From Eledone cirrhosa (taxonomy: Eukaryota), in contig OZ024742.1 of the NCBI GenBank assembly GCA_964016885.1, positions 282,038,001 to 282,102,000 on the forward strand: a DNA stretch of 64,000 nucleotides, written 5' to 3'. The notes beneath the pieces were generated by a model. It had not been told where the DNA came from. It searched no databases and worked only from the letters and a program-made list of their open reading frames with translations. Of this stretch, positions 1,014 through 63,130 are shown one piece after another. Numbering within the stretch: position 1 is the first letter of the stretch; the number at the start of each line of letters is the position of its first letter. A program made the position numbers and the translations under genes.

Positions 1014-1015
<2 letters not shown>

Positions 1016-1213
1016 AACCAGTAAGACCCCCACGGCTGAGCTCAAGCCGTTTCGACGGCTAATTCTGGACTAAAATTAGTCCAGAATTAGCCGTCGAAAC
1101 GGCTTGAGCTCAGCCGTCGGGGTCTTACTGGTTCCTATTACCCACTCTACTACCCAAAGTATTGAGTACTTTGGTGCGTTATGGTCCACCTGGTTCCTTA
1201 CCACATTCCCTTC

Positions 1214-1217
<4 letters not shown>
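1014..1217 (+). mobile_element. Family A fold-back element in (TA)n with partial hammerhead
   Basis: Arm ~1014-1073 is the reverse complement of ~1076-1136, followed by an ~80-bp one-sided tail. Contains GAAA-CGGC-ttgagctca-GCCG-TC (HHR helix III + GUC). Flanked by (TA)n on both sides; further copies in the window. Confidence 0.8.
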
Positions 1218-4967: not shown

Positions 4968-5932
4968 TAATGCGAGAGCTAGGAAATGTCTGTGTGTGTG
5001 TGCGTGAACATACATATATAATATTTATATACTTGTACATATTCCGCGACCTGAGTATGAATTCGTAATTACGTAAGAATGAGTCGTCGCCTCAATATTT
5101 AAACATCGAGGTAATATTTCTTAATGCGTGGTAAAATAGGCAGACATTTTCATAAAATACCTAAAGTTCATGATGTTTGTCTTTCAGTAGGTGAATCCCA
5201 TTATTGGAAATAATTCACTCGTATTAGACAGACTTCAATCAACATTTTTTTAAGGTGTACACTTCTGGAATTTTGTTTACTGCCGGTGTTTAAACAATTG
5301 AAAGAAAGATTTTTGTCTGATTTAAGGGAGGCTTAGCGTAGAGAAAAACATAATCCTTTTCAAAAACTGTTCTATTTTGATAAAGAACTTTTTAAACCGT
5401 TTATGCATTGCAATATGAAGCACAGAAAAAAAGAATTTGTTTCTCTATATCCTATGATTTATTAGTCTGTGAATGGTCAGTATATATGTGCGTTGTCATT
5501 ATGAATGTGTGGTGGTTGTGGTGTTGGGGGATTTTTGTAAGGTCTGTTTGTGTATCTATGATATGTAAAGGAACGCAACCACACTAACACACATATATGT
5601 GTAACGTCAGTTTCCATTTTCCTTACATCCGATTATTTAAGCAGGAATTGTTTCACCATTATTTTCGGTGTGGCATTTTGAGAATATTTTCAGCGCATCT
5701 TGGTAAACGCCACGGTACGTAGTTGACACTGAATTTCAGTGTTTATATACGATCTGGTAGGGTCGATGAGTGAGAATTCGATGTCAAAATTATCAACATA
5801 CGTATCTGTCTTCTAATTTCCACGCATAGCTAGAGAATACCGTTGTGTTTCCTTCCTGAATTTTAAAAATTTTACCCGCTCTCACACATAGGGTATAGGG
5901 TATATGGAATATATATATACATACATGGGTAA

Positions 5933-6021
5933 TATGAAAAGATTCAAGACAGCTAGATCCGAATTTGGATCTAGCTGTCGAAAGAGCCGGAGCTCAGCCG
6001 TCGAATTCCTGAATCTTTTCA
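5933..6021 (+). mobile_element. Family A-like fold-back variant
   Basis: Outer IR tgaaaagattca/tgaatcttttca, inner hairpin gacagctagatcc/ggatctagctgtc, then gaaa..gagctcagccgtc as in family A; adjacent to TA repeats. Confidence 0.6.
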
Positions 6022-6623
6022 TATATATATATATATAATCTTTTTTTTTGTTGGGGTGGGTGGGAGGCCTGGAATATTACTCTCAAGTGTACATATCTCT
6101 AGAGCTAATTATATTCGGCCTGGGGAATTATCATTATGATACAGTCGTCATATTTTTGTATAGGGGTAATTGTCTACATTCTGATATTATTAATTTATGA
6201 TACTTATGACTGGTTGAAAAGTGCTTCCTCGCTAAGTTTAACACATATCTGGTTATATTAGTTTCTAGATTTTGTACTTTCGATGCATTTAAAAGGACAT
6301 TTTTTTCTTGACATACGATATTTCCAAATGCGATAGTTTAATAAGTGGCATCTTTATTGACGGCTGTTGTATATAGTATATGATATTAATTAATAATATT
6401 TCATTGCATTGGGAATGAGTGATTAGGATCTTTATATATGTACGTTAGTTTTTCGTTCAATTTTCCATATGGTGGATATTTAGCTCTCGCTAAAGTATAA
6501 CATTAAATTTAAGTTAACTGTTTTATGTAGATTGTATGACTATTATTAAATCCCTAATACACACACACTACACACACACAGGTAAACACTTATATAGAGA
6601 CTCTCATACACACTCACACTTAA

Positions 6624-7624: not shown

Positions 7625-8519
7625 GAGGTGTGTCAGAAAAGTTCCAGGGCTGATGACATAAAAGTTTTATTTCAAACCCGAACTTAGCACTAAGAGTTTT
7701 CTACTTCAAAGTAATTCCCCTGGAGTCTAATGCACTTTTCCATCCTTTTCTGCCACGCTTGCATGCACTCCTGGAAGGATTCTTCCGGGATTCTCACAAG
7801 TTTCGTCGTCACGGCCTTTTTGATGTCGTCCACGTCTTCAAAACGGGTCCCCTGCGGGTCGTACTCGAAGATCATGACTCATCACCGGTAAAGACTTCCC
7901 TAGCAAGTCTGGTTCGGTTTCAAGACGCTCGAGGATGTCCTGACACACTTGCATGCGTCGACCCTTCTGGTCATCGTTCAGCAGTTTTGGTACCATCTTC
8001 GCGCAGACTTTCCGCATGTCCAAATCTTCAGTGAGAATCTTCCAGACGCTGTCCTGATTCATGCCAATCTCATTTTCTATCAGTCGAACAGTCAGCCGAC
8101 GATCGCTACGCACCATCTGCCTGACGCGCTCAACGTTGACCTCAGTCCTGGTTGTTGAAGTCCCTCCGCTCCTGGGGTCATCTTCCACTTCCTCGTGTCC
8201 TTCTTTAACCTCTTGCGCCACTCAAAAAGACGTGAGCGTGACATCGTCTCATCTCCATACACTTGCTGCAGCGGAGTTTTTCCCAACCGTACCAGAAACT
8301 TCAAGTTTGTTCGCTGCTCTGTGCTCATTGCTTTACGACCTGAAACAGAGGACATGTATATAAAATTATGAGGAAAAAAGTTTGATCGCTGCAAAGAGCT
8401 AAGATTACAGTTACATACTCCAGGGGGATTACTTTGAAGGAGGAAACTCTTATTATGAAGTGTGGGTTTGAAATAAATCTTTTGTGACGTCAATATTGGA
8501 ACTTTTCTGACACACCTCG
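7624..8519 (-). mobile_element. Mariner (Tc1/mariner) DNA transposon, internally deleted
   Basis: 23-bp perfect TIRs cgaggtgtgtcagaaaagttcca (7624-7646 / 8497-8519), TA on both flanks, transposase remnants inside. Confidence 0.93.
7690..8328 (-). pseudogene. Mariner transposase pseudogene (frameshifts; most of the catalytic domain deleted)
   Basis: MSTEQRTNLKFLVRLGK..FEWRKR / EDDPRSG..DRRLTVR..MRKVCAKMVPKLL (WVPxxL motif) / TGDES..FEYDP joined directly to GTRFEDVDDIK..WQKRMEKCIRLQGNYFE. Confidence 0.9.
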
Positions 8520-8526
8520 TACATAT

Positions 8527-8571
<45 letters not shown>

Positions 8572-8602
8572 ACTATATATATATATATATACATATATAT
8601 AC

Positions 8603-8670
<68 letters not shown>

Positions 8671-8937
8671 GTAAATGATGATGTGCTCTAGCGCTGAGAT
8701 GCCATACAATAACTTACAAAATAGGATGAAGACCCTTAAAAGACGGGAAAAGAAGTTGCCATCGACCACTATAAGGGAATGAACCCATTATCTCCCTGAT
8801 ACCAGCTAGATGCTTTAAACATCAATGTAAGGGAACGCCTTTTTAACTAGAGAACTGGGCAACAGCTTTCAGATGTCCGCAGACAGACTAACAAACAGAC
8901 ATCTATATGTATACAAACAATGTATGGAGTCGAATGC

Positions 8938-9010: not shown

Positions 9011-9037
9011 CACGCATATATATATATATATGCATGA

Positions 9038-9908
9038 ATATTTTGTATGTCCAAAGAAATACAGTTTTAGGAAGCCGTAGCTATGCAAACACCGGGTGGC
9101 TAACGCCCTCTGGTGATGTCCAGCAGAAGCAATAGGGACAACCGTCTATGCATTTCATCCTTAACTGGCCTTCGTCAGGACGGTCCCTCCCATCATTTGC
9201 GACTGCTGGACTAGAAGACAGCTGAGAATATATACTTTTCTCGTCTGTGTAAATGAGGTGATTAATCTCATTTGCATATGAAGCTGCATAAGTTGGCTCA
9301 ACTTATAATAAAAAAGAAATAGGATTTCGCTTCAAGCATAGCTTTATACAATATGTATAAATATTTTGTATCTCCAAAGAAATACAGTTTTAGGAAGCCG
9401 TAGCGGTGGTAGGGACTGTCCTGACGAAGGCCAGTTAAGCCTGAAATGCATAGACGGTTGTCCCCCTTGCTTCTGCTGGATATCACCAGATGGCGTTAGC
9501 CCCCTGGTGTTTGCATAGTTACGGCTTCCTAAAACTGTATTTCTTTGGAGATACAAAATATTTATACATATTGTATAAAGCTATGCTTGAAGCGAAATCC
9601 TATTTCTTTTTTATTATAAGTTGAGCCAACTTATGCAGATTTATATGCAAATGAGATTAATCACCGCATTTACATAGACGAGAAAAGTATATATTCTTAG
9701 CTGTCTTCTAGTCCAGCAGTCGCAAATGATGGGAGGGACCAGTCTGACGAAGGCCAGTTAAGGATGAAATGCATAGACGGTTGTTCCTATTGCTTCTGCT
9801 GGACATCACCAGAGGGCGTTAGTCCCACCGGTGCTTGCGTAGCTACGGCTTCCTAAAACTGTATTTCTTTGGAGATACAAAAAGCTATGCTTGAAGCGAA
9901 ATCCTATT

Positions 9909-9913
<5 letters not shown>
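9038..9913. mobile_element. Family B retrozyme-like element: 323-bp monomer, tandem and head-to-head
   Basis: Period 323 (9038/9361; 9421/9744). Left arm 9038-9404 on minus, right arm 9405-9913 on plus; three HHR motifs; (TA)n flanks. Confidence 0.85.
9412..9464 (+). ncRNA. Type I hammerhead ribozyme (family B)
   Basis: gggac.tgtc-CTGACGA-aggc cagttaa gcct-GAAA-tgca-TA-gacgg..gtccc; helix III palindrome ATGCAT. Confidence 0.85.
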
Positions 9914-10431: not shown

Positions 10432-10479
10432 ATATATATATATATATATATATGTATAAGAGATATTTCCAGGAATAAA

Positions 10480-10640
10480 TTGAACCGTTAAGGTATATCA
10501 TCCTTGCTTATGTCAAATATTTATAAAACATTTTGTATTTTATCTGATGATAGCGTACCAAAATTTTTGGTACCCTTGAAATATATATAACAGAATAAAT
10601 ATGGTTTTATAAATATAGTTTCCATTTATTTAATATCAAT
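10480..10640 (+). mobile_element. Family D single arm with HHR
   Basis: Homologous to 16661-16820; CTGATGA at 10544, GAAA at 10578. Confidence 0.75.
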
Positions 10641-10642
10641 TG

Positions 10643-10733
<91 letters not shown>

Positions 10734-12445: not shown

Positions 12446-12587
12446 CAGAATTGGAGACGAATAGATAGATGTAGAGATAGATATCGAAAGACCGTGTGTG
12501 ACAGTCTGATAATTGTCCAACCCTGGTTCTTTTTTGATCGAGAAAAGATATTTGCGTATGTGTCTATGTGCGTAAATATATATTTAC

Positions 12588-12756
12588 ATAATTGTTTCTA
12601 CTTTTGGCACAAGGCCAGCAATTACTCAGTACATTACTGATACTTTATTTTATCGACGCCGTAAGGATGAAAGGCAGAGTTAACATCGGCGGGATTAACT
12701 TTGCCTTTCATCCTTACGGGGTCGATAAACTAAAGTACCAGTAATGTACTGGGTAA
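12588..12756. mobile_element. Major SINE in head-to-head fold-back arrangement
   Basis: 12622-12683 is the imperfect reverse complement of 12695-12756. Confidence 0.75.
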
Positions 12757-13878: not shown

Positions 13879-14463
13879 TGGTGGCTGCCAACTCGTTTTC
13901 GAGTACGGCCACTACTTTATATCCATGTAGGAGAACCCCTACCGATGCGCTGAACGAATGTGACTTTTTAGTCCAGCCAGCGACTTGAAAACTCTGGTAC
14001 AAAGACTACACTTGTGACCATTATTGACACATAGTGCAGGGCCCATGGTACCATGTGATGACAAGTGCAGAGAGATCTCCAGATACAAAGCAATGCCTGT
14101 GCTGTGAAGCTTTTATAGTGAGCAAAGGCACTGCACAAAGCCAGTCCCACTCTCTTAACCAAGATGATATTTACCAAAAAGAAGAACAAGTCAACATCAT
14201 TGGATACCATCAGGGTTGCAGGTGTTATATCAGAGTTTTCCTTCTCCTAGAATTCTGCCTTGACAAAGGCTAAGGGGTCATCTCTCCCGGTGATTTTGGA
14301 TGGCTATTGAGTCTTAAGAGCTCCCTTGCCCTTTGACAGGTTTTGTTTTTAGTCCTGCAGGATGTCCAAAGTCACCCTCCTCACCAAGAAACCTTGGTGG
14401 AGTTGCCAGTTTAGTCGCCAACGACCCGACCATGAGACAGGTTGTACTGGGATACATGTTACC
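13879..14463 (-). mobile_element. Bipartite non-autonomous RTE-like LINE derivative
   Basis: Near-identical inverted copy at 30769-31175. The 3' part encodes a C2H2 remnant (C..CTRVFKSLAGLKSH.RSAHR) typical of RTE-group C-termini; short tandem-repeat tail; no RT domain. Confidence 0.65.
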
Positions 14464-15292: not shown

Positions 15293-15787
15293 AGAAATAG
15301 GATTTCGCTTCAAGCATAGCTTTATACAAATATGTATAGAAATTTGGTATTTCTAAAGAAACGCTATGTTTACAGGAAACATTTAGGAAGTCGTAACTAT
15401 GCAAACACCGGGGCTAACGCCCTCAAAAGTGGTGTCCAGCAGAGGCAAGGGGGACAGCCGTCTATGCATTTCAGGCTTGACTGGCCTTCATCAGGACCTA
15501 TTATAAGTTGGGCCAACTTATGCAGCTTCATATGCAAATGAGATTAATCACCTCATTTACACAGACGAGAAAACTATATATTCTCGACTGTTCTCAACTC
15601 CAGCAGTTGCAAGCGGTGGGGGGGGGCGTCCTGATTAAGGCCAGTCAAGCCTGAAATGCATATACGGTTACCCGCCTTGCTTCTGCTGGACACCACCAGA
15701 GGGCGTTAGCCCCGGTGTTTGCATAGCTACACGGCTTCCTAAATGTTTCCTGTAAACATACCGCGTTTCTTTAGAAATACGAAATTA
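15293..15787. mobile_element. Family B (divergent subfamily) fold-back
   Basis: Homologous to 9038-9913. Minus-strand HHR with CTGATGA at ~15453-15498; plus-strand copy mutated (CTGATTA at 15631). Confidence 0.8.
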
Positions 15788-15789
15788 CT

Positions 15790-16304
15790 ATGCCGGTTCA
15801 GCAAACATTAGGTATTAGGATTGGTGCTCTGAAATAGCGATGTATACCTGAATGTATGTATAATATATTTGGCAATATACCGTATGTTTAATTAAAAACA
15901 TTTACAAGACCATATGCTATCAGTTTTCAAATATACTATACATACATTCATGTATACATCGCTATTTCAGAGCACCAATCCTAATATCTAATTTTTGCTG
16001 GACCGGCAATCGCTCTGTATAATCAGCTCCTGATTATTACTGGAATTCTATAAGAATCCAGCTTCTATAATTTTCGGCGGAAGCAGGGGAGTACGTGGCT
16101 CTGATGAACGCCGGCCAGCGTGAAACAAACTGTCAGCTTCTCTCCCTTCTTTCGCCGAAACGAAATAAGTGACACGGTCACTACTATAAAACTGATAGCG
16201 TATGGTCGTCTAAATGTTTTTAATTAAACATACGGTATATTGCCAAATATACTATACATACATACATGTATACATCGCTATTTCAGAGCACCAATCCTAA
16301 TACC
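15790..16304 (+). mobile_element. Family C1 retrozyme-like element (316-bp period, inverted 5' arm)
   Basis: caaatatactatacatac repeats at 15928 and 16244; 15790-15927 is an inverted copy; central HHR. Confidence 0.8.
16097..16138 (+). ncRNA. Type I hammerhead ribozyme (family C1)
   Basis: ggct-CTGATGA-acgc cggcca gcgt-GAAA-ca aac tg-TC-agct (GUC site), enclosed by a longer stem tttcggcggaag..ggggag / ctccc..tttcgccgaaa. Confidence 0.85.
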
Positions 16305-16338
16305 ATATATATATATATACATACACACATACATACGT

Positions 16339-16409
16339 AGTTTCAGGAGATCCCGTTAAGGCTGAAAGAAACGATTCTTTGCTTAAACATTAATCTGTTA
16401 TTTTAATAA

Positions 16410-16410: not shown

Positions 16411-16500
<90 letters not shown>

Positions 16501-16501
16501 A

Positions 16502-16910
16502 AATGATATTAAATAAATGGAAACTATATTTATAAAACCATATTTATTCTATTATATATATTTCAAGGGTACCAAAACTTTGGTACGCCATCATCAGATA
16601 AAATACAAAGTTTGTTTTATAAATGTTGACATAACCAAGAAAAGATACCTTAAGAAAAACTTGAACCGTTAAGGTATCTTTTCTTGGTTATGTCAACATT
16701 TATAATACACACTTTTTATTTTATCTGATGAGAGCGTACCAAGGTTTTGGTACACTTGAAATATATATAATAGAATAAATATGGTTTTATAAATATAGTT
16801 TCCATTTATTTAATATCATTGAATACTCCAGAAAATCTGTCGAGTGCTCTGAACCAGTTATACACATTTAGATTTGTTAAATTACCAACAACTTGAATAT
16901 CCCCTTTGCT
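16502..16910 (+). mobile_element. Family D fold-back element with tail
   Basis: Arms 16502-16653 and 16669-16820 are inverted; one-sided tail 16821-16910; TA flanks. Confidence 0.85.
16717..16777 (+). ncRNA. Type I hammerhead ribozyme (family D)
   Basis: tattttat-CTGATGA-gag.gtacc..ggtac.ctt-GAAA-tatata-TA-atagaata; helix III palindrome ATATATAT; mirror copy on the minus strand at ~16545-16605. Confidence 0.8.
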
Positions 16911-16915
16911 TATAT

Positions 16916-16968
<53 letters not shown>

Positions 16969-20513: not shown

Positions 20514-20520
<7 letters not shown>

Positions 20521-20730
20521 GTGAGGGTTTTTTTAACAAAATGAAAAATAACCGAGGTGTCCTACACGAGTGAAAGTATAAAGAAAAAAAGATGAAATTG
20601 AAAATGCAACTGGAGTCTTATTTTTTTTTAAATATATATATTTATTTGGTTCCAAAGAAACCAAATAAATATATATATTTTTTAAAAAATAAGACTCCAG
20701 TTGCATTTTCGATTTCATCTTTTTTCTTTA
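20514..20730 (-). mobile_element. TA-embedded fold-back element (no HHR retained)
   Basis: Arms ~20579-20650 and ~20660-20730 are inverted; tail 20514-20578 on the left only. Confidence 0.7.
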
Positions 20731-20732
20731 TG

Positions 20733-24062: not shown

Positions 24063-24123
24063 TTGATATATATTTACCCTTATCGAGCCCTCTTTGGATT
24101 TTAATCTTCAAATCTATTATTAT

Positions 24124-24185
<62 letters not shown>

Positions 24186-24189
<4 letters not shown>

Positions 24190-24695
24190 TGAGATGAGCA
24201 GAACAAACAAACATTAAAAAATTCCTTAAAAAAATTTAAAAAATTATTTAAATATTTACCTGTTCATTATGCTATTACCGGCGGTTTTGCTTTTCAAAAG
24301 ATTAAAAATTCAGAGAATTTCTAACGGACAAGTAAAGTTCATCAGATAGCTATTTCCACTCTATAGGATCAAGTCCCAGGGTCTGCAAATAGATTGCCAA
24401 CTACCAGCTCGTATGAGTTATGGCCGTTAAAGTGACCCACACGTGAACTGGCCGCTAATAAAAGCGGGAATATTACAGACGCGCTGCTGGCTTTGGTGCT
24501 ATAAAAATAGCAGTAAGCAACAACGAATTTTTTTCTCTACATAGATTGGAGAATGTATAAAATAAGGTAAATATCTCTCTGGGTACTAAGTACGCATAGA
24601 GATATATAGGGTGTCTATAATATTGTTCGATGGTACTAATTTGAGATACCAGAACTATAAAAATTGAGATGAGCAGAACAAACAAATATTAAATA
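24186..24695 (-). mobile_element. Family L: 475-bp monomer with terminal direct repeat and degenerate HHR
   Basis: aaattgagatgagcagaacaaacaaa at 24186 and 24661. Minus strand 24350-24271 reads gctat-CTGATGA-acttt...aaagc-AAAA(G12A)-ccgccgg-TA-atagc. TA flanks. Confidence 0.7.
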
Positions 24696-24727
24696 ATATA
24701 TATATATATATATATACTGTATATATA

Positions 24728-24881: not shown

Positions 24882-27488
<2,607 letters not shown>

Positions 27489-29395: not shown

Positions 29396-29586
29396 GGAAA
29401 AAGTATGACCCCGATGGCAGAGCTCAAGCCGTTTCGACGGCTATTTCTGGACTGCTATTTCCAGAAATACCCGTCGAAACGGCTCGAGCTCTGCCGTCGG
29501 GGTCATACTTTTTCCTATTACCCACTCTAAGTATTGAGTACTCTGGTGCGTTATGGTCCATCTGGTTCCTTACCACAATTCCTTCG

Positions 29587-29625: not shown

Positions 29626-30298
29626 GAGAGAGAGAGAGAGAGAGAGAAAGATCTGCCCCAGCTCCTGCTTTCCATCACTCGTGAAATTTTCTTACTTGAA
29701 ATTTTCCATATACTTCAGAGAACAAAATCGGCAAAAGAGGCCGCAAAATCGCTCGGTATGCAAATGAGGCTAATCAGCCGATGTATACATTTGAAAATAC
29801 TATGTATTCTCAGGTGTTCCAGCGGGTAGCATAACGAGCGCAATACACAATCTTGACATAGAGCAAGACAATCCGAAACGATTATCAATTCTCAATTGTT
29901 TCCTCCCAGCTACCTCAGGAACAAAAGTATGACGTTGCCATCTACCACGTGGTGTTTTATGAGGCGGTTTATTTGTAAACAAATGGAATATTAATATTGT
30001 TATGATATTATATTATTATTATTCACGCTTAGTGAGTTCAAATCCCGCCAAGCTTAAATTTTCTTTTTATCTTTATGGTGTCGATTTAATCGACTTTCCT
30101 CCTACCCCAAAGTTGCTGGCCTTGTGCCTAAATAAGAACCCATTTTTATTCACGCTTAGGGCGGTTGCTTGGCAGTATTAGTAGAACCTCAAACACCATG
30201 CTTTGGTAGTACCTATCTAAATAATGGTTTCTTATATAGGCACAAGGCCAGCAATCTTTGGGAAGGGGAAAGTCGGTTAAATGAAGACAGACATAAAT

Positions 30299-30407
30299 AT
30301 CTGTCTCCAAGAAACGACTGGTAAATGAAGTAATTATCTTATGTTGTTTATTACATAGCCCACATAGAGCACTCTCTTTTCTTTTACCTTTCCTACGGAA
30401 ATACTTC

Positions 30408-30448
<41 letters not shown>

Positions 30449-30465
30449 TATATAAATATACATAT

Positions 30466-30561
<96 letters not shown>

Positions 30562-30753
30562 AATGTATATTTATATATGTGTGCATATATATATATATAT
30601 ATGTATGTATATATATATATATATATATGAAGTATTTCCGTAGGAAAGGTAAAGGAAAAGAGAGTGCTCTATGTGGGCTACAGAGCTTTTTAGTTATGTA
30701 ATAAAAAACATAAGATAATTACTTCATTTACCAGTCGTTTCTTGGAGACAGAT
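30299..30753. repeat. Inverted repeat (~110-bp arms) enclosing a TA/CA microsatellite
   Basis: 30299-30409 is the imperfect reverse complement of 30628-30753. Confidence 0.8.
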
Positions 30754-30768
30754 GTGTTTGTATATATA

Positions 30769-31172
30769 TCACCGGGAGAGATGACCCCTTAGCCTTTGTC
30801 AAGGCAGAATTCTAGGAGAAGGAAAACTCTGATATAGCACCTGCAACCCTGATGGTATCCAATGATGTTGAAGTGTTCTTCTTTTTGGTAAATATCATCT
30901 TGGTTGAGAGAGTGGGACTGGCTTTGTGCAGTGCCTTTGCTCACTATAAAAGCTTCACGGCACAGGCATTGCTTTATATCTGGAGATCTCTCTGCACTTG
31001 TCATCACATGGGCCCAGCACTATGTGTCAATAATTGTCAGAAGTGTAGTGTTTGTACCAGAGTTTTCAAGTCGCTGGCTGGACTAAAAAGTCACACTCGT
31101 TCAGCGCATCGGTAGGAGTTCTCCTACATGGATATAAAGTAGTGGCCGTACTCGAAAATGAGTTGGCAGCCA

Positions 31173-31175
<3 letters not shown>
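30769..31175 (+). mobile_element. Bipartite RTE-like derivative, second copy
   Basis: Reverse complement of 13879-14292; C2H2 remnant CSVCTRVFKSLAGLKSHTRSAHR. Confidence 0.65.
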
Positions 31176-31717: not shown

Positions 31718-31721
<4 letters not shown>

Positions 31722-32061
31722 GGAGGTGAGTTTTATTGTAGTACAATAAAGCAATGCAAATATCGTATAAGAAGCACTCTACAGTTTGTAGGACTGGAGT
31801 ATACATAATATATAAGATCAAAAGATGGTTAAAAGAGTTCCATGTATTTTATTATGCGCATTTCAAAAACAAATATCATCATGCAATAACATTTGTGTTT
31901 TCATCAGATAAAATAGGAAGACATGATATTAAGTGTTTTTTAACCTTCATATCATGTCTTCCTATTTAATCTGATGAAAACACAAATGTTATTGCATGAT
32001 GATATTTGTTTTTGAAATGCGCATAATAAAATACATGGAACTCTTTTAACCATCTTTTGAT

Positions 32062-32066
<5 letters not shown>
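31718..32066. mobile_element. Family H fold-back with two mirror HHRs and left tail
   Basis: 31808-31929 vs 31949-32066 form a near-perfect IR; extra ~90 bp on the left only; TA flanks. Confidence 0.85.
31963..32033 (+). ncRNA. Type I hammerhead with extended helix II (family H)
   Basis: tatttaat-CTGATGA-aaacacaaatgttat..atgatatttgttttt-GAAA-tgcgca-TA-ataaaata. The mirror copy at 31845-31915 (-) has a perfect 8-bp helix I. Confidence 0.82.
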
Positions 32067-32119
<53 letters not shown>

Positions 32120-32185
32120 AATATAAATTCAGCCAGAATCGTATTTCGGCTGGTAGAAAAAGCGAAACGAAATTCAAAATCGTAG

Positions 32186-32248: not shown

Positions 32249-32744
32249 ACTAGAAATTGATTAACATATAAATAAACATGAATAATCACAGGAGATAATT
32301 TTTACAAGTGTGTAAGCACACATAGCTAGGTAGGTAACTAAATAAAGTTAACCAGAACTTCAAAAATAGATACCTTATAATATGATTAATCTTCCCTGTA
32401 TATATTCCATTAAAGAAATATATTTCACCAATTAATCGAATGGTAAACCATAGAGGCCGGTACTTGGATTTTCAACAAGATTTTCAACAAGATTAATCAT
32501 ATTATAAGGTATCTATTTTTGAAGTTCTGGTTAACTTTATTTAGTTACCTACCTAGCTATGTGTGCTTACACACTTGTAAAAATTATCTCCTGTGATTAT
32601 TCATGTTTATTTATATGCTAATCAATTTCTAGTTATTATAAAATGCTCGAACCTATTCGTTAGAATCTTAGAGCTTATTTTGCGGGTGATATGGCGCATG
32701 CCTTTCTGGCATGACACCCATAATTTTGATTATCTTAATTTTGG

Positions 32745-32790: not shown

Positions 32791-32793
<3 letters not shown>

Positions 32794-33219
32794 AATTATT
32801 AAAAAAATAATGAATAAACAAAGAAACAGTTCCTTATATTAAACAAAAAAAGTTCATTATTTTACGATCGTTTCTAGGACATATAAGTTTATTTCTGAAG
32901 ACAGCATATATATGTGAAGGTATGTATATTCTCTCTGATAGTTTGTATAATTTTGTACATAGATCTTTTGAATATGCATACCAATTCTAACACATATATG
33001 TCCTAGAAACGATCGTAAAATAATGAACTTTTTTTGTTTAATATAAGGAACTGTTTCTTTGTTTATTCATTATTTTTTTAATAATTTATCTTGACTCTGT
33101 TTTCCGTTTATCTTTCACCGAAAGTGATTTTGAATGCATCTCTTCTTTTCATGATATCCGGATTACATTGAGTTCTTCATACGGATTGGACACTACCGTA
33201 AACTTTTGGTAGATTTATC

Positions 33220-33222
<3 letters not shown>
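32791..33222 (+). mobile_element. Family I fold-back with tail
   Basis: 32791-32885 vs 32995-33089 are inverted; tail 33090-33222; TA flanks. Confidence 0.82.
32889..33023 (+). ncRNA. Type I hammerhead with ~100-nt helix II (family I)
   Basis: ttattt-CTGAAGA-[catatatatgtg/cacatatatg; ggtatgtatattc/gaatatgcatacc]-GAAA-cgatcg-TA-aaataa. Confidence 0.75.
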
Positions 33223-33774: not shown

Positions 33775-33780
33775 TATATA

Positions 33781-33869
33781 GGAAAATGTTTGACCCCGGC
33801 GGCAGAGCTCAAGCCATTTCAACGGCTATTTATGGACTCTACTACCCTAAGTACTCTGGTGCGTTATGG
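33781..33869. mobile_element. Family A decayed copy
   Basis: Inverted arm fused to a tail fragment. Confidence 0.65.
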
Positions 33870-34049: not shown

Positions 34050-34660
34050 ATGTATAAATATTTCGTATCTCCAAAGAAATACGGTTTTAGGAAGCCGTAG
34101 CTATGCAAACATCGAGGGTGCTAACGCCCTCTGGTGATGTCCAGCAAAAACAAGGGGCACAACCGTCTATGCATTTCAGGCTTAACTGGCCATCGTCAGG
34201 ACGTTCCCTCCCACTGCTTGAGACTGCTGGACTAGAAGACAGCTGAGAATATATACTTTTCTTGTCTGTGTAAATTAGGTGATTAATCTCATTTGCATAT
34301 GAAGCTGCATAAGTTGATTCAACTTATAATAGAAAGTTGAGCCAACTTATGCAGCTTCATATACAAATGAGATTAATCACCTCATTTACACAGACGAGAA
34401 ATCTATATATTCTCGCCTGTCTTCTAGTCCAGCAGTCTCAAGCAGTGGGAGGGACCGTCCTGACGATGGCCAGTTAAGCCTGAAATGCATAGACGGTTGT
34501 ACCGCTTGCTTCTGCTGTCCATCAACAGAGGGCGTTAGCCCCCCCCCCCCCCCCGGTATTTGCATAGCTACGGCTTCCTAAAACCGTATTTCTTTGGAGA
34601 TACGAAATATTTATACATATTGTATAAAGCTATGCTTGAAGCGAAATCTTATTTCTTTTC
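34050..34660. mobile_element. Family B fold-back with two mirror HHRs
   Basis: Left arm on minus to ~34330, right arm on plus. accgtc-CTGACGA..GAAA-tgca-TA-gacggt at 34454-34497; mirror at 34161-34206. Confidence 0.85.
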
Positions 34661-34679
34661 TATATATATATATATATAT

Positions 34680-36016
34680 GAATATAGACATAGAATATTC
34701 TCGAATATTCTGTATGTTTATAATAAACATTTTGAAGACCTAATCGCTATAGAATAGAATACGTCACGTATTACAATTAGATTCTCGATAAAAGCAAGGG
34801 AAGTAATCTACGCGTTTCATTCTTGTTAGAAATCATCAGGACTACATATCCAGTGCTTTTATCGAGAATGACACAGCTAGAGACTTATAGAATACTTAGC
34901 TGTGTACAGGAACTGGTTTGAAAGAGCGGTTGCCGGTCCGGCAGAAATTAGAAATTGGAATAAATGCTCTGAAATAGCGATATATATGTGAATATAGACA
35001 TAGAATATTCTCGAATATTCTGTATGTTTATAATAAACATTTTGAAGACCTAATCGCTATAGAATAGAATACGTCACGTATTACAATTAGATTCTCGATA
35101 AAAGCAAGGGAAGTAATCTACGCGTTTCATTCTTGTTAGAAATCATCAGGACTACATATCCAGTGCTTTTATCGAGAATGACACAGCTAGAGACTTATAG
35201 AATACTTAGCTGTGTACAGGAACTGGTTTGAAAGAGCGGTTGCCGGTCCGGCAGAAATTAGAAATTGGAATAAATGCTCTGAAATAGCGATATATATGTG
35301 AATATAGACATAGAATATTCTCGAATATTCTGTATGTTTATAATAAACATTTTGAAGACCTAATCGCTATAGAATAGAATACGTCACGTATTACAATTAG
35401 ATTCTCGATAAAAGCAAGGGAAGTAATCTACGCGTTTCATTCTTGTTAGAAATCATCAGGACTACATATCCAGTGCTTTTATCGAGAATGACGCAGCTAG
35501 AGACTTATAGAATACTTAGCTGTGTACAGGAACTGGTTTGAAAGAGCGGTTGCCGGTCCGGCAGAAATTAGAAATTGGAATAAATGCTCTGAAATAGCGA
35601 TATATATGTGAATATAGACATAGAATATTCTCGAATATTCTGTATGTTTATAATAAACATTTTGAAGACCTAATCGCTATAGAATAGAATACGTCACGTA
35701 TTACAATTAGATTCTCGATAAAAGCAAGGGAAGTAATCTACGCGTTTCATTCTTGTTAGAAATCATCAGGACTACATATCCAGTGCTTTTATCGTCATTC
35801 TCGATAAAAGCACTGGATATGTAGTCCTGATGATTTCTAACAAGAATGAAACGCGTAGATTACTTCCCTTGCTTTTATCGAGAATCTAATTGTAATACGT
35901 GACGTATTCTATTCTATAGCGATTAGGTCTTCAAAATGTTTATTATAAACATACAGAATATTCGAGAATATTCTATGTCTATATTCACATATATATCGCT
36001 ATTTCAGAGCATTTAT

Positions 36017-36022
<6 letters not shown>
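34680..36022. mobile_element. Family C2: 310-bp tandem array (3.6 near-identical units) plus inverted partial unit
   Basis: Units start at 34681, 34991, 35301 and 35611; inversion at ~35795; one HHR per unit; TA flanks. Confidence 0.9.
35821..35863 (+). ncRNA. Type I hammerhead (family C2); minus-strand copies at 34803-34845, 35113-35155, 35423-35465, 35733-35775
   Basis: gtagtc-CTGATGA-tttct aaca agaat-GAAA-cgcg-TA-gattac; palindromic ACGCGT; enclosed by attctcgataaaagca/tgcttttatcgagaat. Confidence 0.85.
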
Positions 36023-36062
<40 letters not shown>

Positions 36063-37232
36063 CTTAAGGTTTGTTGGTTCACCACTGGATAGAATTGGTC
36101 ATTCCGTATGGTCAATCTTGATGTAATATTGTGGAGAGTACTCAACGTAGTGCAGTTCACCCGTCTTCGTTTGTGTAGTTGGTGGTGCGAATACGGAGTT
36201 AATTATAAATAAATAGAATAACAGGGGGCTGGACTGGTGTAAATCCTTGAAAGGTTTATTATACTATGATCATTTCAATGACTGGGTTACATATGAATCC
36301 GGTGATATCATCAGGTATTGGAATATAACAAAGGAATATGTAAAAAACCATGGGTCCGAAAAATCAGAGACAGAGACAGAGAGGACGACTGACCAACTAG
36401 CTGCTTTCACCTCGGCCAGTCGCCCTCAAGGTGATGGCAACTGAATCTACTAATGACCATCTGGTGAGGGGGCGAAGGCTTATAATGCACTATCACCTCT
36501 CCGTCAAAGAAAAAGGTGAAGAAAGAAAGAAAGGAAGAAAGAAGAAGAAAAAGGAAGAAAGGAAGAAAGAAGTCAGCGTAAGGATCACACTACATCCATG
36601 CTAGAAAATACCGCGAAAAATGCTACTCCAAAGAATCTATATTTACCAAAGGCATATATAATGGGTCTCTGTATGGTCTAATGTGTGAACCGAAAATTGG
36701 AACATTAAACCTATGTTACGAGTAATAGGATGAAATTAAATTAAATTAAAAAATATTAAATTGCAAAATGATAAATTAAAAAATAAATTATTAGAAAATG
36801 AAAGGTTAAGGTCGCGAGATTTATTTTATGAACTTACATACAGAGTCTCATATGAAAAAATTAATCTCGATAAGATATAGAGTAAATATTTCGATTGTGA
36901 GACCCAGCCAGCCCCCCCCCCCCCCCCCCCACCATGAGTCAGCCAGTTTCGAGTGGTATCGTCCAGCGAAAGAAATGGAAATTAATTTTTCCGAGTACTC
37001 TAGGAACGTAGCTACCTTAGGCCCCGGGAGTGCTAGCGGGAAGTCTACAATTTCGACAGGCCATCGTCTATACCAAACGAATATTATTAATTCACACATG
37101 AGGGGGTTTATTTACTCTACTACCCTAAGTATTCAGTACTCTGGTGCGTTATGGTCCATCTCGTTCCTTACCACAATTCCTTTGTTATAAATATTTATAT
37201 ATATACACACACACACACACACACATATATAT

Positions 37233-37876: not shown

Positions 37877-37958
37877 CATATATATATATATATATATATA
37901 GTAATAATAATAAATTTGAAGACTAAAATCCAAAGAGGGCTTAAACTTTAATCTCTTC

Positions 37959-38031
<73 letters not shown>

Positions 38032-38503: not shown

Positions 38504-38902
38504 TCTCTTTCCTCCCTCTCTCTCTCCCTCTCTCCCTCTCTCCACACACATACATATATATGTGTGTATATATATATATATAAAAGCAAGCCTAACTTAA
38601 CAATTCATATGTATATATCTATCTATCTACGGAATGTAACGTCCACAGCTGAGCAATGTCAAAACGCGCATCACTACTCAATAAACGTAAAGAAGACATA
38701 ACATAACGTCCTTTTTATTATTGCCTTTCATCTTTACGGGATCGATAAAATGAAGTACCAGTCACTCACTGGGGCCGATTCAATCGACTTTCCCCTCCCC
38801 CAAAATTGCTGGCCTTGTGCCTATATAAGAAACCATTGTTTTATAATAGTAGAACAATAGTAGTAGTAGAGCACTTAGTCCATGGGATAAGTTTGGTAGA
38901 AG

Positions 38903-39039
38903 TAGTTCCACAACAGTTAGTTCACCATACCGAGAACAACTGTTTCACCTTATGCGGATCTTCAGAGTCAGACCGAGCTGAAGATCCGCATAAGGTGAAA
39001 CAGTTGTTCTCGGTATGGTGAACTAACTGTTGTGGAACT
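38903..39039. mobile_element. Family F fold-back
   Basis: 38903-38965 is a perfect IR of 38978-39039. Confidence 0.82.
38972..39014 (+). ncRNA. Minimal type I hammerhead (family F)
   Basis: accgag-CTGAAGA-tcc gcataa ggt-GAAA-cagttg-TT-ctcggt; 6-bp helix I; GUU site. Confidence 0.82.
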
Positions 39040-39087
39040 AATTCTCTCTGTCTCTCTCTCTCTCTCTCACTCTCTCTCTCTCTCTCA

Positions 39088-39140
<53 letters not shown>

Positions 39141-39143
<3 letters not shown>

Positions 39144-39326
39144 CGAAGGAAATGTGGTAAGGAACCAGGTGGACCATAACGCACCAAAGTACTCAATACT
39201 TAGGGTAGTAGAGTGGGTAGTAGGAACGAGTAGGACCCCGACGGCTGAGCTCAAGCCGTTTCGACGGCTAATTCTGGACTGAAAATACTCAGCCGTCGGG
39301 GTCCTACCGTCGGGGTCCTACTCGTT

Positions 39327-39366
<40 letters not shown>

Positions 39367-39556
39367 AAAAGGTATGACCCCAACGGCAGAGCTCAAGCCG
39401 TTTCGACGGCTATTTCAGTCCAGAAATAGCCGTCGAAACGGCTTGATCTCTGCCGTCGGGGTCATACTTTTTTCCTATTTCCCACTCTACTACCCTAAGT
39501 ATTGAGTACTCTGCTGCGTTATGGGCCATCTGGTTCCTTATCACAATTCCTTTGTT
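39141..39556. mobile_element. Two adjacent family A copies (39141-39330 tail left; 39363-39556 tail right)
   Basis: Homology to 1014-1217 and 29394-29588. Confidence 0.82.
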
Positions 39557-40264: not shown

Positions 40265-40419
40265 GTATATATGTATTTAAACATATACATGTATGTATAA
40301 ATGTATATATAATCATAAATATACATATATACAAGTATATTTGTATTTATACATATACATGTAAATATTTATATATATATACACACACACATACACATTT
40401 ATATATATATATTTATATA

Positions 40420-40735
40420 GTAATAATAATAAATTTTAAGACTAAAATCCAAAGAGAGCTCGATAAGGATAAATATATATCAAATATATAAGAACCGTAG
40501 AGCAAATATTTATTAAAATAACAGATTAAAGTTTAAGCAAAGAATCGCTGCTTTCACCCTTAACGGGATCTTCTGAAACTAACAAAGTCAATCTGTTCCC
40601 ACAGTTAAACGGTTGCAACGTTTTTTGAAATATCCAGTTCTGCGTTTACAGATTGACTTTGTTAGTTTCAGAAGATCCCGTTAAGGGTGAAAGCAACGAT
40701 TCTTTGCTTAAACTTTAATCTGTTATTTTAATAAA
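40420..40735. mobile_element. Family E fold-back with left tail and variant HHR
   Basis: Arms 40509-40596 and 40648-40735; tail 40420-40508. agttt-CAGAAGA-tccc gttaa gggt-GAAA-gcaa..ttgc-TT-aaact at 40664-40714. Confidence 0.8.
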
Positions 40736-40781
<46 letters not shown>

Positions 40782-53156: not shown

Positions 53157-54352
53157 GTTTGTTTCTGTCTGTCACACATACAACTTATGGACACCCTGCT
53201 CAGTTTGTTTCTGTCTGTCACACATACAACTTATGGACACCCTGCTCAGTTTGTTTCTGTCTGTCACACATACAACTTATGGACACCCTGCTCAGTTTGT
53301 TTCTGTCTGTCACACATACAACTTATGGACACCCTGCTCAGTTTGTTTCTGTCTGTCACACATACAACTTATGGACACCCTGCTCAGTTTGTTTCTGTCT
53401 GTCACACATACAATTTATGGACACCCTGCTCAGTTTGTTTCTGTCTGTCACACATACAACTTATGGACACCCTGCTCAGTTTGTTTCTGTCTGTCTCACA
53501 TACAACTTATGAACACCCTGCTCAGTTTGTTTCTGTCTGTCTCACATACAACTTATGGACACCCTGCTCAGTTTGTTTCTGTCTGTCACACATACAACTT
53601 ATGGACACCCTGCTCAGTTTGTTTCTGTCTGTCACACATACAACTTATGAACACCCTGCTCAGTTTGTTTCTGTCTGTCACACATACAACTTATGGACAC
53701 CCTGCTCAGTTTGTTTCTGTCTGTCTCACATACAACTTATGAACACCCTGCTCAGTTTGTTTCTGTCTGTCTCACATACAACTTATGGACACCCTGCTCA
53801 GTTTGTTTCTGTCTGTCACACATACAATTTATGGACACCCTGCTCAGTTTGTTTCTGTCTGTCACACATACAACTTATGAACACCCTGCTCAGTTTGTTT
53901 CTGTCTGTCACACATACAACTTATGGACACCCTGCTCAGTTTGTTTCTGTCTGTCTCACATACAACTTATGAACACCCTGCTCAGTTTGTTTCTGTCTGT
54001 CTCACATACAACTTATGGACACCCTGCTCAGTTTGTTTCTGTCTGTCTCACATACAACTTATGGACACCCTGCTCAGTTTGTTTCTGTCTGTCACACATA
54101 CAACTTATGGACACCCTGCTCAGTTTGTTTCTGTCTGTCACACATACAACTTATGGACACCCTGCTCAGTTTGTTTCTGTCTGTCACACATACAACTTAT
54201 GGACACCCTGCTCAGTTTGTTTCTGTCTGTCACACATACAATTTATGGACACCCTGCTCAGTTTGTTTCTGTCTGTCACACATACAACTTATGGACACCC
54301 TGCTCAGTTTGTTTCTGTCTGTCTCACATACAACTTATGGACACCCTGCTCA
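53157..54352. repeat. Minisatellite, 26 x 46 bp
   Basis: Unit gtttgtttctgtctgtcacacatacaacttatggacaccctgctca; three recurring single-base variants. Confidence 0.97.
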
Positions 54353-54590
54353 GTTTGTTGTGCAGCCTGTTCGGATAGTTGTAACCTCACCTTTATGCAC
54401 GAAATTGCATTGGCTAAGGACTGACACATGAAGAGGGTAGATGCTTTTGTTCGTTCATCCTACTTTATGCTTTTTCGTTGGCAACACCCACACACACACG
54501 CACACAAATATACATGGGTGAATTGAAACAAACTTGTGCTGCTATATGGAATAGTTCTATTAATAAAATATATTTTGACTCTACATATAT

Positions 54591-61940: not shown

Positions 61941-62062
61941 ACGAAGGAAATGTGGTAAGGAACCAGGTGGACCATAACGCACCAAAGTACTCAATACTTG
62001 AGGTAGTCAGAATTAGCCGTCGAAACGGCTTGAGCTCAGCTGTCGGGGTCTTACTGGTTCCT
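61939..62062. mobile_element. Family A copy: inverted tail joined to a tail-less arm
   Basis: 61939-62007 is the reverse-complement tail; 62008-62062 is the cagaattagccgtcgaaac..ggttcc arm. Confidence 0.8.
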
Positions 62063-62155: not shown

Positions 62156-62525
62156 AACAAAATAAAGATCCGAAGGCATGGTATAACATTCCAATCATTT
62201 TAATCACGACACATGTTTCAATAAGAGATAGATCGATCGTGTGGCCATGATCGATTATTACTGATCTCGTCAGGTGATAAATCAGTGATAATCGATCATG
62301 GCCACACGATCGATCTATCTCTTATTGAAACATGTGTCGTGATTAAAATGATTGAAAATTTATACCATGCCTTCGGATCTTTATTTTGATACAAATACTC
62401 TTCACATCATCTAGCTGTTCCCATAAATGGAATTGGAGATATACAAAAGCGTGGAGAACTTAATATTGCCAGCAAAAGTTTATTGGACCGTATGACACAA
62501 CCAATAATATACCTTACTATATAAC

Positions 62526-62528
<3 letters not shown>
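62156..62528. mobile_element. Family J fold-back with right tail
   Basis: 62158-62265 vs 62281-62388 are inverted; tail runs to 62528. Confidence 0.83.
62203..62278 (-). ncRNA. Type I hammerhead with extended helix II (family J)
   Basis: Minus strand: atcac-CTGACGA-..atcgatc..gatcgat..-GAAA-catgtg-TC-gtgat. Confidence 0.78.
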
Positions 62529-62565
<37 letters not shown>

Positions 62566-62569
<4 letters not shown>

Positions 62570-62772
62570 TTAGCGAGAATCGCATTTCGGCGGGTAGAAA
62601 AAGCGAAACGAAACGCAAAAATCGGAGTTATGCTGGCAATCGCACCATAGTTAAAAAACCAGAGCTAAACAATATGTTAAAACGCTATACAAACTGAAAA
62701 ATTGGTCAAGAAAGCATTACCCACCTAAGCCAAAAACCAAATCAAGCTAAACAGGTCAAAACAAGATAAATG

Positions 62773-62775: not shown

Positions 62776-62861
<86 letters not shown>

Positions 62862-62864
<3 letters not shown>

Positions 62865-63130
62865 TCCCAAAAGTCAGCTCAAAAGTGACACAGAGGAGAC
62901 TGAGGTTAGCTGGACATGCTCACCGACATCCAGAGTTGACATTGCACTCAGTGCTCCTTTGGGAGCTCCTACATGGACACACTAGAAGAGGAAGACCAAG
63001 GTTAACGTATGTTGATGTCCTAAGGACAGACACTGGTCTGTTGGAGATGCAGGACATGGCAGCGATAATGAGGGACAGAGACCGCTGGAGAGAACTCGTC
63101 CATGGATCTCGGGAATTTTACCCGCCTTAA
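62862..63130 (+). mobile_element. RTE-type LINE 3' end
   Basis: RRLRLAGHAHRH..LLWE..GHTRRGRPRLTYVD..MRDRDRWR; (ATAG)n tail. Confidence 0.85.

Follow-up and report, generated by a model that had tools for sequence, protein, structure and literature searches.

Endonuclease-positive PLEs such as Penelope, Adineta Pen2a and Naiad insert together with an inverted, 5'-truncated copy of themselves placed head-to-head, and they are also alike in having a tail at one end, a hammerhead in the terminal repeat and microsatellite targets (PMC3846280, PMC8557442). Here and below, statements on published work refer to the sections of each source from which they are drawn. According to PMC8557442, the tail measures 30–40 bp and is often one-ended, insertion is biased towards (TA)n, and the origin of the inverted repeats is named as open, together with second-strand synthesis. 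Head-to-head palindromes are also described in PMC3846280, where self-priming is proposed, and PLE-related knowledge is summarized in PMC8969392. In vitro, the protein of an Anolis PLE (Poseidon PAc) introduces nicks into both strands of AT-rich DNA, extends them and begins reverse transcription at two internal RNA sites, which define the tail; how inverted copies arise is left to 'additional steps' (PMC11167929).

Two further groups are close. Hydra-clade PLEs insert in (TA)n and carry hammerheads (PMC8557442), and the supplement of the same paper includes Hydra-1_Obim, from an octopus, and Penelope-13_HM, with an inverted 5'-truncated copy. Non-LTR retrozymes are tandem, non-coding units of about 300 nt bearing type I hammerheads, described as head-to-tail arrays, and a PLE origin has been proposed for them (PMC7229834; bioRxiv 10.64898/2026.07.22.740005). 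Finally, PMC4209133 defines minimal hammerheads and notes pairs of them on opposite strands, 100–700 bp apart; these pairs may be the same structure as the insertions described here.

The stretch of DNA analysed here (64,000 bp, hereafter the window) is animal sequence rich in microsatellites. At 16502–16910, two arms lie head-to-head and only one of them continues into a tail, as the preliminary description had claimed. The parts of this element, the flanking microsatellites and a second copy of its family are as follows (sites A and B denote the 3' ends of the tail-less and the tailed arm, respectively).

16412..16501, no strand: (CA)n followed by (TA)n (TA run at 16482–16499), left half of the presumed microsatellite target
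16502..16653, minus strand: tail-less arm, 152 bp, whose 3' end is site A and adjoins the TA run
16545..16605, minus strand: minimal type I hammerhead of the tail-less arm, core from 16597 to 16553, pointing outward
16654..16668, plus strand: 15-bp spacer, corresponding to extra 5' sequence of the tailed arm
16669..16820, plus strand: part of the tailed arm common to both arms
16715..16779, plus strand: minimal type I hammerhead of the tailed arm, core 16725–16769
16821..16910, plus strand: 90-bp tail, ending at the presumed site B
16911..16966, no strand: TA remnant (about 4 TA units) followed by (GA)n, right half of the presumed target
10453..10646, plus strand: second copy of the family, consisting of one arm that stops at site A and is flanked by TA on either side

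The two arms are identical at 145 of 152 positions and align without gaps. Both hammerheads, as delineated by our descriptor, have a palindromic helix III, with helices I and II of 8 and 9 bp in the tail-less arm and of 10 bp each in the tailed arm. They read outward from the centre, and the arms are therefore head-to-head with their 3' ends at the TA tracts. The second copy stops within about 3 bases of the internal end point of the anchor arm and is followed there by TA; it carries a sequence similar to the spacer upstream (10473–10487), which shows the spacer to be upstream sequence of the tailed arm. The family has a single B end within the window, where no tandem copy of it was seen, and its upstream part resembles the spacer of another family, F40.5 (p 0.005, in a comparison chosen after looking). 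All seven differences between the arms fall within one 49-nt stretch around the hammerhead (16540–16616 and 16706–16754), and helix II folds in both versions despite them; in this single case, the clustering could reflect two templates or gene conversion. The segment 10453–10472 of the second copy was considered as a very short inverted tail and rejected (shuffle p 0.16–0.19).

Inverted repeats (27 rows of local inverted repeats in the masked window) and family searches yielded 19 two-armed insertions, which occupy 7,160 of the 64,000 bases (11% of the window). Besides the anchor element, these insertions and the lone pieces of their families are the following.

1014..1217, no strand: F1.0 two-armed insertion, tail 82 bp
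29396–29586, 39143–39328 and 39364–39556: further F1.0 two-armed insertions
33780..33869, no strand: F1.0 insertion with non-overlapping arms and a 3-nt junction microhomology
61941..62061, no strand: F1.0 insertion, B arm and A arm non-overlapping
37114–37186: F1.0 lone tail
37900..37963, no strand: minimal F40.5 insertion, 64 bp, no palindrome, 3-nt microhomology
40419..40738, no strand: F40.5 two-armed insertion, tail 87–89 bp
16338–16409, 24063–24126 and 24914–24976: F40.5 lone arms
9032..9913, no strand: F34.0 insertion, both arms spanning more than one hammerhead-bearing unit of about 300 nt
15293..15791, no strand: F34.0 insertion, tail-less arm about 120 nt longer on its 5' side than the tailed arm
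34051..34660, no strand: F34.0 insertion, tail 43 bp
34679..36020, no strand: F35 insertion, A arm of 3.6 tandem 310-nt hammerhead units, B arm of 0.7 unit, tail 33 bp
20515..20732, no strand: single-copy two-armed insertion, tail 62–64 bp
31718..32063, no strand: single-copy two-armed insertion, tail 97 bp, hammerhead cores in both arms
32249..32744, no strand: single-copy two-armed insertion, tail 111 bp
32793..33222, no strand: single-copy two-armed insertion, tail 135–136 bp
38860..39045, no strand: two-armed insertion with hammerhead cores, extension of about 38 bp, flanks other than TA
62156..62528, no strand: single-copy two-armed insertion, tail 138–140 bp

In every one of the 19 insertions the outer ends are unequal and the tail is one-sided, including those at 20.5 and 32.2 kb, for which the preliminary description had likewise proposed the shared architecture. 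Its palindromic form applies to the 16 insertions whose arms overlap; in the other three, the smallest being 64 bp long, the arms do not overlap and there is no palindrome. The tail length that it gave, 65–140 bp, is close to that of 8 of the 11 families (62–140 bp) but not to that of the remaining three (33–43 bp). As to its claim that the arms run into (TA)n, TA is found at both ends of 17 insertions; the exceptions are 15293–15791, which adjoins another element instead, and 38860–39045, which runs into (CT)n and a SINE-like repeat. Of the 12 hairpin rows that are clean, 10 have their nearer outer end at most 2 nt from a TA run, and the other two, where the distance is 12–13 nt, adjoin TA by inspection; as a baseline, a TA run is no more than 5 nt away from about 2% of unmasked positions. 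Within (TA)n, a target duplication is unreadable.

Several structures were kept outside the count of 19, along with SINE-related and low-complexity inverted-repeat rows. The first, at 5919–6020, is possibly a single arm with a long hairpin. The second, at 15791–16304, is a three-part element whose left end adjoins the neighbouring insertion; it is about 75% similar to the 35-kb tandem unit and has a canonical-looking hammerhead at 16101–16134. The third, at 30291–30761, is an inverted duplication centred on a TA tract, where two like arms end from opposite sides; the microsatellite variants are mirrored too (84% identical), a geometry unlike that of the two-armed insertions. A further small family ends at TA tracts beside two-armed insertions (32126–32179 and 62567–62700). 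The TA tracts of the window have been hit repeatedly.

In the multi-copy families, both outer end sites recur to within a few bases: the 13 outer ends of F1.0 comprise six at A, six at B and one elsewhere, and there are three A and four B ends in F40.5, three of each in F34.0, and two A and one B in the anchor family. Outer ends are thus fixed across independent copies, contrary to the random variation that the preliminary description had named as evidence against its reading. The pairing of the ends can be assessed in the 11 two-armed insertions of F1.0, F40.5 and F34.0, families whose A and B are established from other copies: ten combine A with B, one combines A with another site (the right end of 33780–33869, distinct from both A and B), and A+A and B+B are absent. 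If ends picked sites freely and with equal odds, the chance of zero symmetric pairs would be 0.5^11 = 5e-4. In the eight single-insertion families site B is taken from one copy, and the A and B labels are therefore partly circular. In 7 of 10 families, the overlap of site A with the TA phase amounts to 3 nt or more (p 4e-5, the anchors having been picked by eye), and in the anchor family it is 0 nt; TA-like matches of a comparable kind are common (5–18% of positions).

The arms were then compared with each other in 13 assignable insertions. In six (33780, 37900, 61941, 15293, 34051 and 34679) the A arm contains sequence absent from the B arm; in five, including the anchor element, it is nested within it, and two are ambiguous. 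The clearest case is 37900–37963, in which the last 42 nt before B are joined head-to-head to about 30 nt before A, leaving a 45-nt gap between the arms in RNA coordinates, and the whole lies between TA tracts; 33780 and 61941 resemble it. In 34679, the A arm has about 80 nt absent from the B arm, the shared part is identical at 186 of 186 positions and the tandem units differ at 0–1 sites. Seven junctions showed microhomologies of 3, 3, 3, 2, 2, 0 and 0 nt, the chance expectation for 3 nt or more being about 0.06 (61941 scores 0 nt because of a 1-nt deletion), and some junctions fall at short palindromes or hairpins. The central junction, said earlier to vary, does not do so freely in F1.0, where junctions cluster at two zones. 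By eye, paired arms carry the same subfamily-diagnostic bases, non-overlapping pairs included. In 9032, the two terminal units have five derived sites in common (0 and 0 in the other pairings), and the units before them are identical at 94 of 95 positions, which indicates that both arms come from like transcripts, in register.

We consider it rather probable that these insertions arise by two coupled primings, in which one DNA end starts at A and the other at B, followed by joining and fill-in. The templates would be ORF-less PLE derivatives (retrozyme-like units or fragments of pseudo-LTRs), for whose insertion a PLE would supply its RT/GIY-YIG protein in trans. Both strands of a (TA)n tract would be cut, as another PLE does in vitro, and each DNA 3' end would prime a cDNA with the element RNA as template, one from A and the other from B, 33–140 nt 3' of A; the two start sites seen in vitro and the fixed ends seen here both point to this step. 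The end pairing suggests that the two primings are coupled, with one A and one B per event, on a single transcript or on two similar ones within the same complex. Each cDNA would then stop early, independently of the other, and the cDNA 3' ends would anneal through 0–3 nt or a local hairpin before fill-in, each serving as second-strand template for the other. Overlapping arms would thus give a hairpin with a one-sided tail, and non-overlapping arms a small inversion like that of L1 twin priming. In L1 twin priming, cDNA synthesis on the RNA starts from two DNA ends, and an inversion results when the products are joined through microhomology; the internal site used by the second primer varies and there is scarcely any overlap between the segments, in contrast to the fixed pair of sites and the usually overlapping arms of the window.

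The preliminary description had already suggested that both ends of a cut TA tract prime at two RNA positions. Our data support this idea, which is partly in print (PMC11167929), short of proof. The stricter form, one DNA end per site within one event, is favoured by the fixed ends, the lack of A+A and B+B insertions, the non-overlapping pairs and the microhomologies, but it is unproven, since palindromes that lost internal sequence after insertion could look like the non-overlapping forms. Indeed, palindromes are prone to asymmetric central deletion, which leaves microhomology and turns nested arms into non-overlapping ones, and such deletion is a live rival as the source of the non-overlapping arms. 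Moreover, in vitro, start-site use is apparently the same on both strands and the RNA start lacks homology to the cut DNA (PMC11167929); the coupling and the short TA-like match implied here are at odds with these data, and the sections cited of that paper report neither site-to-DNA-end coupling nor RNA–DNA homology for PAc.

The main alternative, related to the self-priming idea of PMC3846280, is a single priming at B, after which the cDNA snaps back on a hairpin, copies itself up to A and is joined there to the other DNA end via a short TA-like match, later central deletions accounting for the non-nested cases. A+B pairing and shared diagnostic bases would come automatically from such fold-back copying, which also fits the TA-like match at A, the five nested insertions and the junctions at palindromes or hairpins; the in-register identity of the 9032 arms suits it equally well, and to that extent speaks against coupled priming. 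However, fold-back copying would always leave the A arm within the B arm, as observed in 5 of the 13 assignable insertions and contradicted in six, each of which would require a second event. That event would have to fit into the history of the very young 34679 array and of 37900 and 61941, whose arms are 90–98% identical to their closest sister copies. In addition, site A corresponds to a demonstrated start of reverse transcription in the anole PLE (PMC11167929). The evidence thus favours coupled two-end priming over the published self-priming idea, and we regard fold-back copying as unlikely, though worth keeping in view.

Less likely still is that both arms come from one site, the tail being made or removed afterwards by endonuclease resolution, or lost to an internal TAT motif. 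The tail is ascribed to endonuclease-mediated resolution in PMC8557442, site A is often at a TA-like motif, and one F1.0 copy ends at another such motif (33869). Yet none of the 19 insertions is symmetric, six independent F1.0 copies share one end although TA-like matches are common, and both ends were traced to start sites in the in vitro study (PMC11167929), all of which makes this scenario improbable. TA-targeting MITEs or other fold-back DNA transposons would likewise be short, non-coding, inverted-repeat, numerous and TA-flanked, but asymmetric termini in 19 of 19 insertions, non-uniform sizes (90–204 bp in F1.0, 64–320 bp in F40.5), lone arms, tandem units and hammerhead-carrying arms make them a very poor explanation. 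Library or assembly fold-back artefacts are just as hard to credit: palindromes next to microsatellites are difficult to assemble and the arms of 34679 are 100% identical, but 14 of the 15 arm pairs aligned differ (79–99% identity) and ends recur at separate loci, which argues against such artefacts, as do spacers, tails and non-palindromic A+B pairs, all unlike fold-back reads.

Returning to coupled priming, a bolder version, which we put forward tentatively and with more doubt than belief, is that PLE integration is obligately two-primed and asymmetric: within a single complex, the two ends of the cut TA tract would be placed on sites A and B of the same RNA, either tandem or circular, the polymerases would tend to stop at each other's primer, and the cDNAs would template each other's second strand. 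There are three hints of this. The F1.0 tail-only arms (three copies) stop 6–14 nt past site A; three of six F34.0 arms stop at most 9 nt from the preceding unit's site B; and 24187–24697 (minus strand) is an element flanked by TA on either side and made of a 475-nt unit and a direct terminal repeat of 36 bp, with a weak hammerhead-like core, resembling the 34-bp direct repeats that PMC2377424 describes for Penelope. If true, a single rule would account for inverted pseudo-LTRs and one-sided tails as well as for second-strand synthesis and the 34-bp direct repeats of Penelope.

Most of the finding is known, since the pseudo-LTR, the one-sided tail, (TA)n targeting and the two start sites have all been published; in particular, the inverted pseudo-LTR lacking the 3' tail, invoked in the preliminary description as a PLE hallmark, is a published one (PMC8557442, PMC3846280). 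What the window adds is A+B pairing, non-overlapping arms, 0–3 nt of junction microhomology and tails of 62–140 bp (90 bp in the anchor element). The minimal products discriminate between two-end priming and fold-back, and the tails of 8 of 11 families are two to four times as long as the published 30–40 bp (PMC8557442). We found no published statement of A+B coupling, non-overlapping arms or long tails, which is weak evidence given that older Penelope and subscription literature was thinly covered. Short insertions of this kind, in many families, offer thousands of natural products per genome for counting end pairing and junctions, and they make a sharp prediction for the existing in vitro PLE system. 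They also run a risk of being mis-annotated as MITEs or microRNA hairpins (Rfam gives sub-threshold microRNA matches over them), and, if transcribed, the hairpins would be expected to give long double-stranded RNA.

Unlike endonuclease-positive PLEs, nearly all copies in the window are without an ORF, and some have non-overlapping arms. No RT + GIY-YIG ORF is present inside the two-armed elements, and their arms matched no PLE or Hydra protein profile and encode no PLE protein; the two-armed elements are non-autonomous PLE fragments or derivatives. Elsewhere in the window lies a PLE ORF that could represent the type of helper:

24977..26215, plus strand: broken, 5'-truncated RT + GIY-YIG ORF of a Hydra-clade PLE

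This ORF has 30 homologues at E 3.5e-39 or better; Pfam did not recognize it. Inspection of the translation by eye revealed a C-terminal GIY-YIG domain, a CxCX5C linker and a CxxC...E...N...CxH pattern, motifs that define the Hydra clade (PMC8557442, section 11); linker and endonuclease motifs are present in most of the 30 homologues. The RWK and DKT region is absent from the truncated ORF and is found in several homologues. An F40.5 tail adjoins the 5' break in inverted orientation. The region after the stop codon matches none of the 15 reference arms, and the ORF is therefore only a candidate helper. The window shares (TA)n insertion, hammerheads and the linker and pattern of the clade with Hydra-clade PLEs (PMC8557442), whereas no link from any of its arm families to the ORF was found. 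Other PLE clades may be the mobilisers, several arms having minimal hammerheads with a palindromic helix III. A weak match to the Hydra RT profile at 6137–6502 (minus strand; E 3e-4 and 3e-3) is probably an older, decayed PLE fragment.

A custom hammerhead descriptor was used because Rfam reported no hammerhead among the matches listed (150 of 313 for the whole window, and 7 rows for 16680–16830). It gave 15 matches, against a shuffle mean of 0.05 (maximum 1 in 100 shuffles), and those within two-armed insertions point outward, with their 3' ends toward the TA tracts. The minimum-energy folds of nine hammerhead regions were mostly no better than those of shuffles (z below -2 in one of nine). 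Arm orientation comes from the hammerheads in five families and is presumed in the others: no core was found by the descriptor at 20.5, 32.2, 32.8 and 62.2 kb, and cores in F1.0 and F40.5 are only partial or altered. In five hammerhead-bearing families, the predicted cleavage site lies 135–170 nt from the tail end and, with a wider spread, 38–130 nt from site A.

F34.0 (about 300 nt) and F35 (310 nt) are made of retrozyme-type tandem non-coding units with one type I hammerhead each. They differ from retrozymes in that the latter are described as head-to-tail arrays (PMC7229834; bioRxiv 10.64898/2026.07.22.740005), whereas those of the window are contained in inverted A+B insertions. At 36063–36330 (minus strand), a single hammerhead-bearing arm ends in the TA tract on the right-hand side of the 35-kb array; no partner arm was found for it.

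The window also contains an abundant tRNA-like SINE family (4270, 12588, 12771, 22327, 27653, 51678, 54591, 58383, 60674, 63798 and others), which we take to resemble octopus CORE-type SINEs; box A- and B-like motifs were recognized by eye, and ARAGORN called no tRNA in it. One SINE copy (12584–12756) has a comparable inverted overlap, with a 15-bp target duplication, and the inverted-overlap shape alone is therefore not PLE-specific. Two inverted transposase fragments at 7625–8787, presumably mariner-like, have a weak HTH_32 match and microsatellites between them. A fragment present twice (13880–14294 and 30768–31174) has a C2H2 zinc-finger-like end, below the cut-off, and 62777–63130 is another, LINE-like C-terminal fragment that appears to resemble RTE. 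Finally, 53157–54359 is occupied by a 92-bp tandem repeat of about 13 copies, 97–99% identical.
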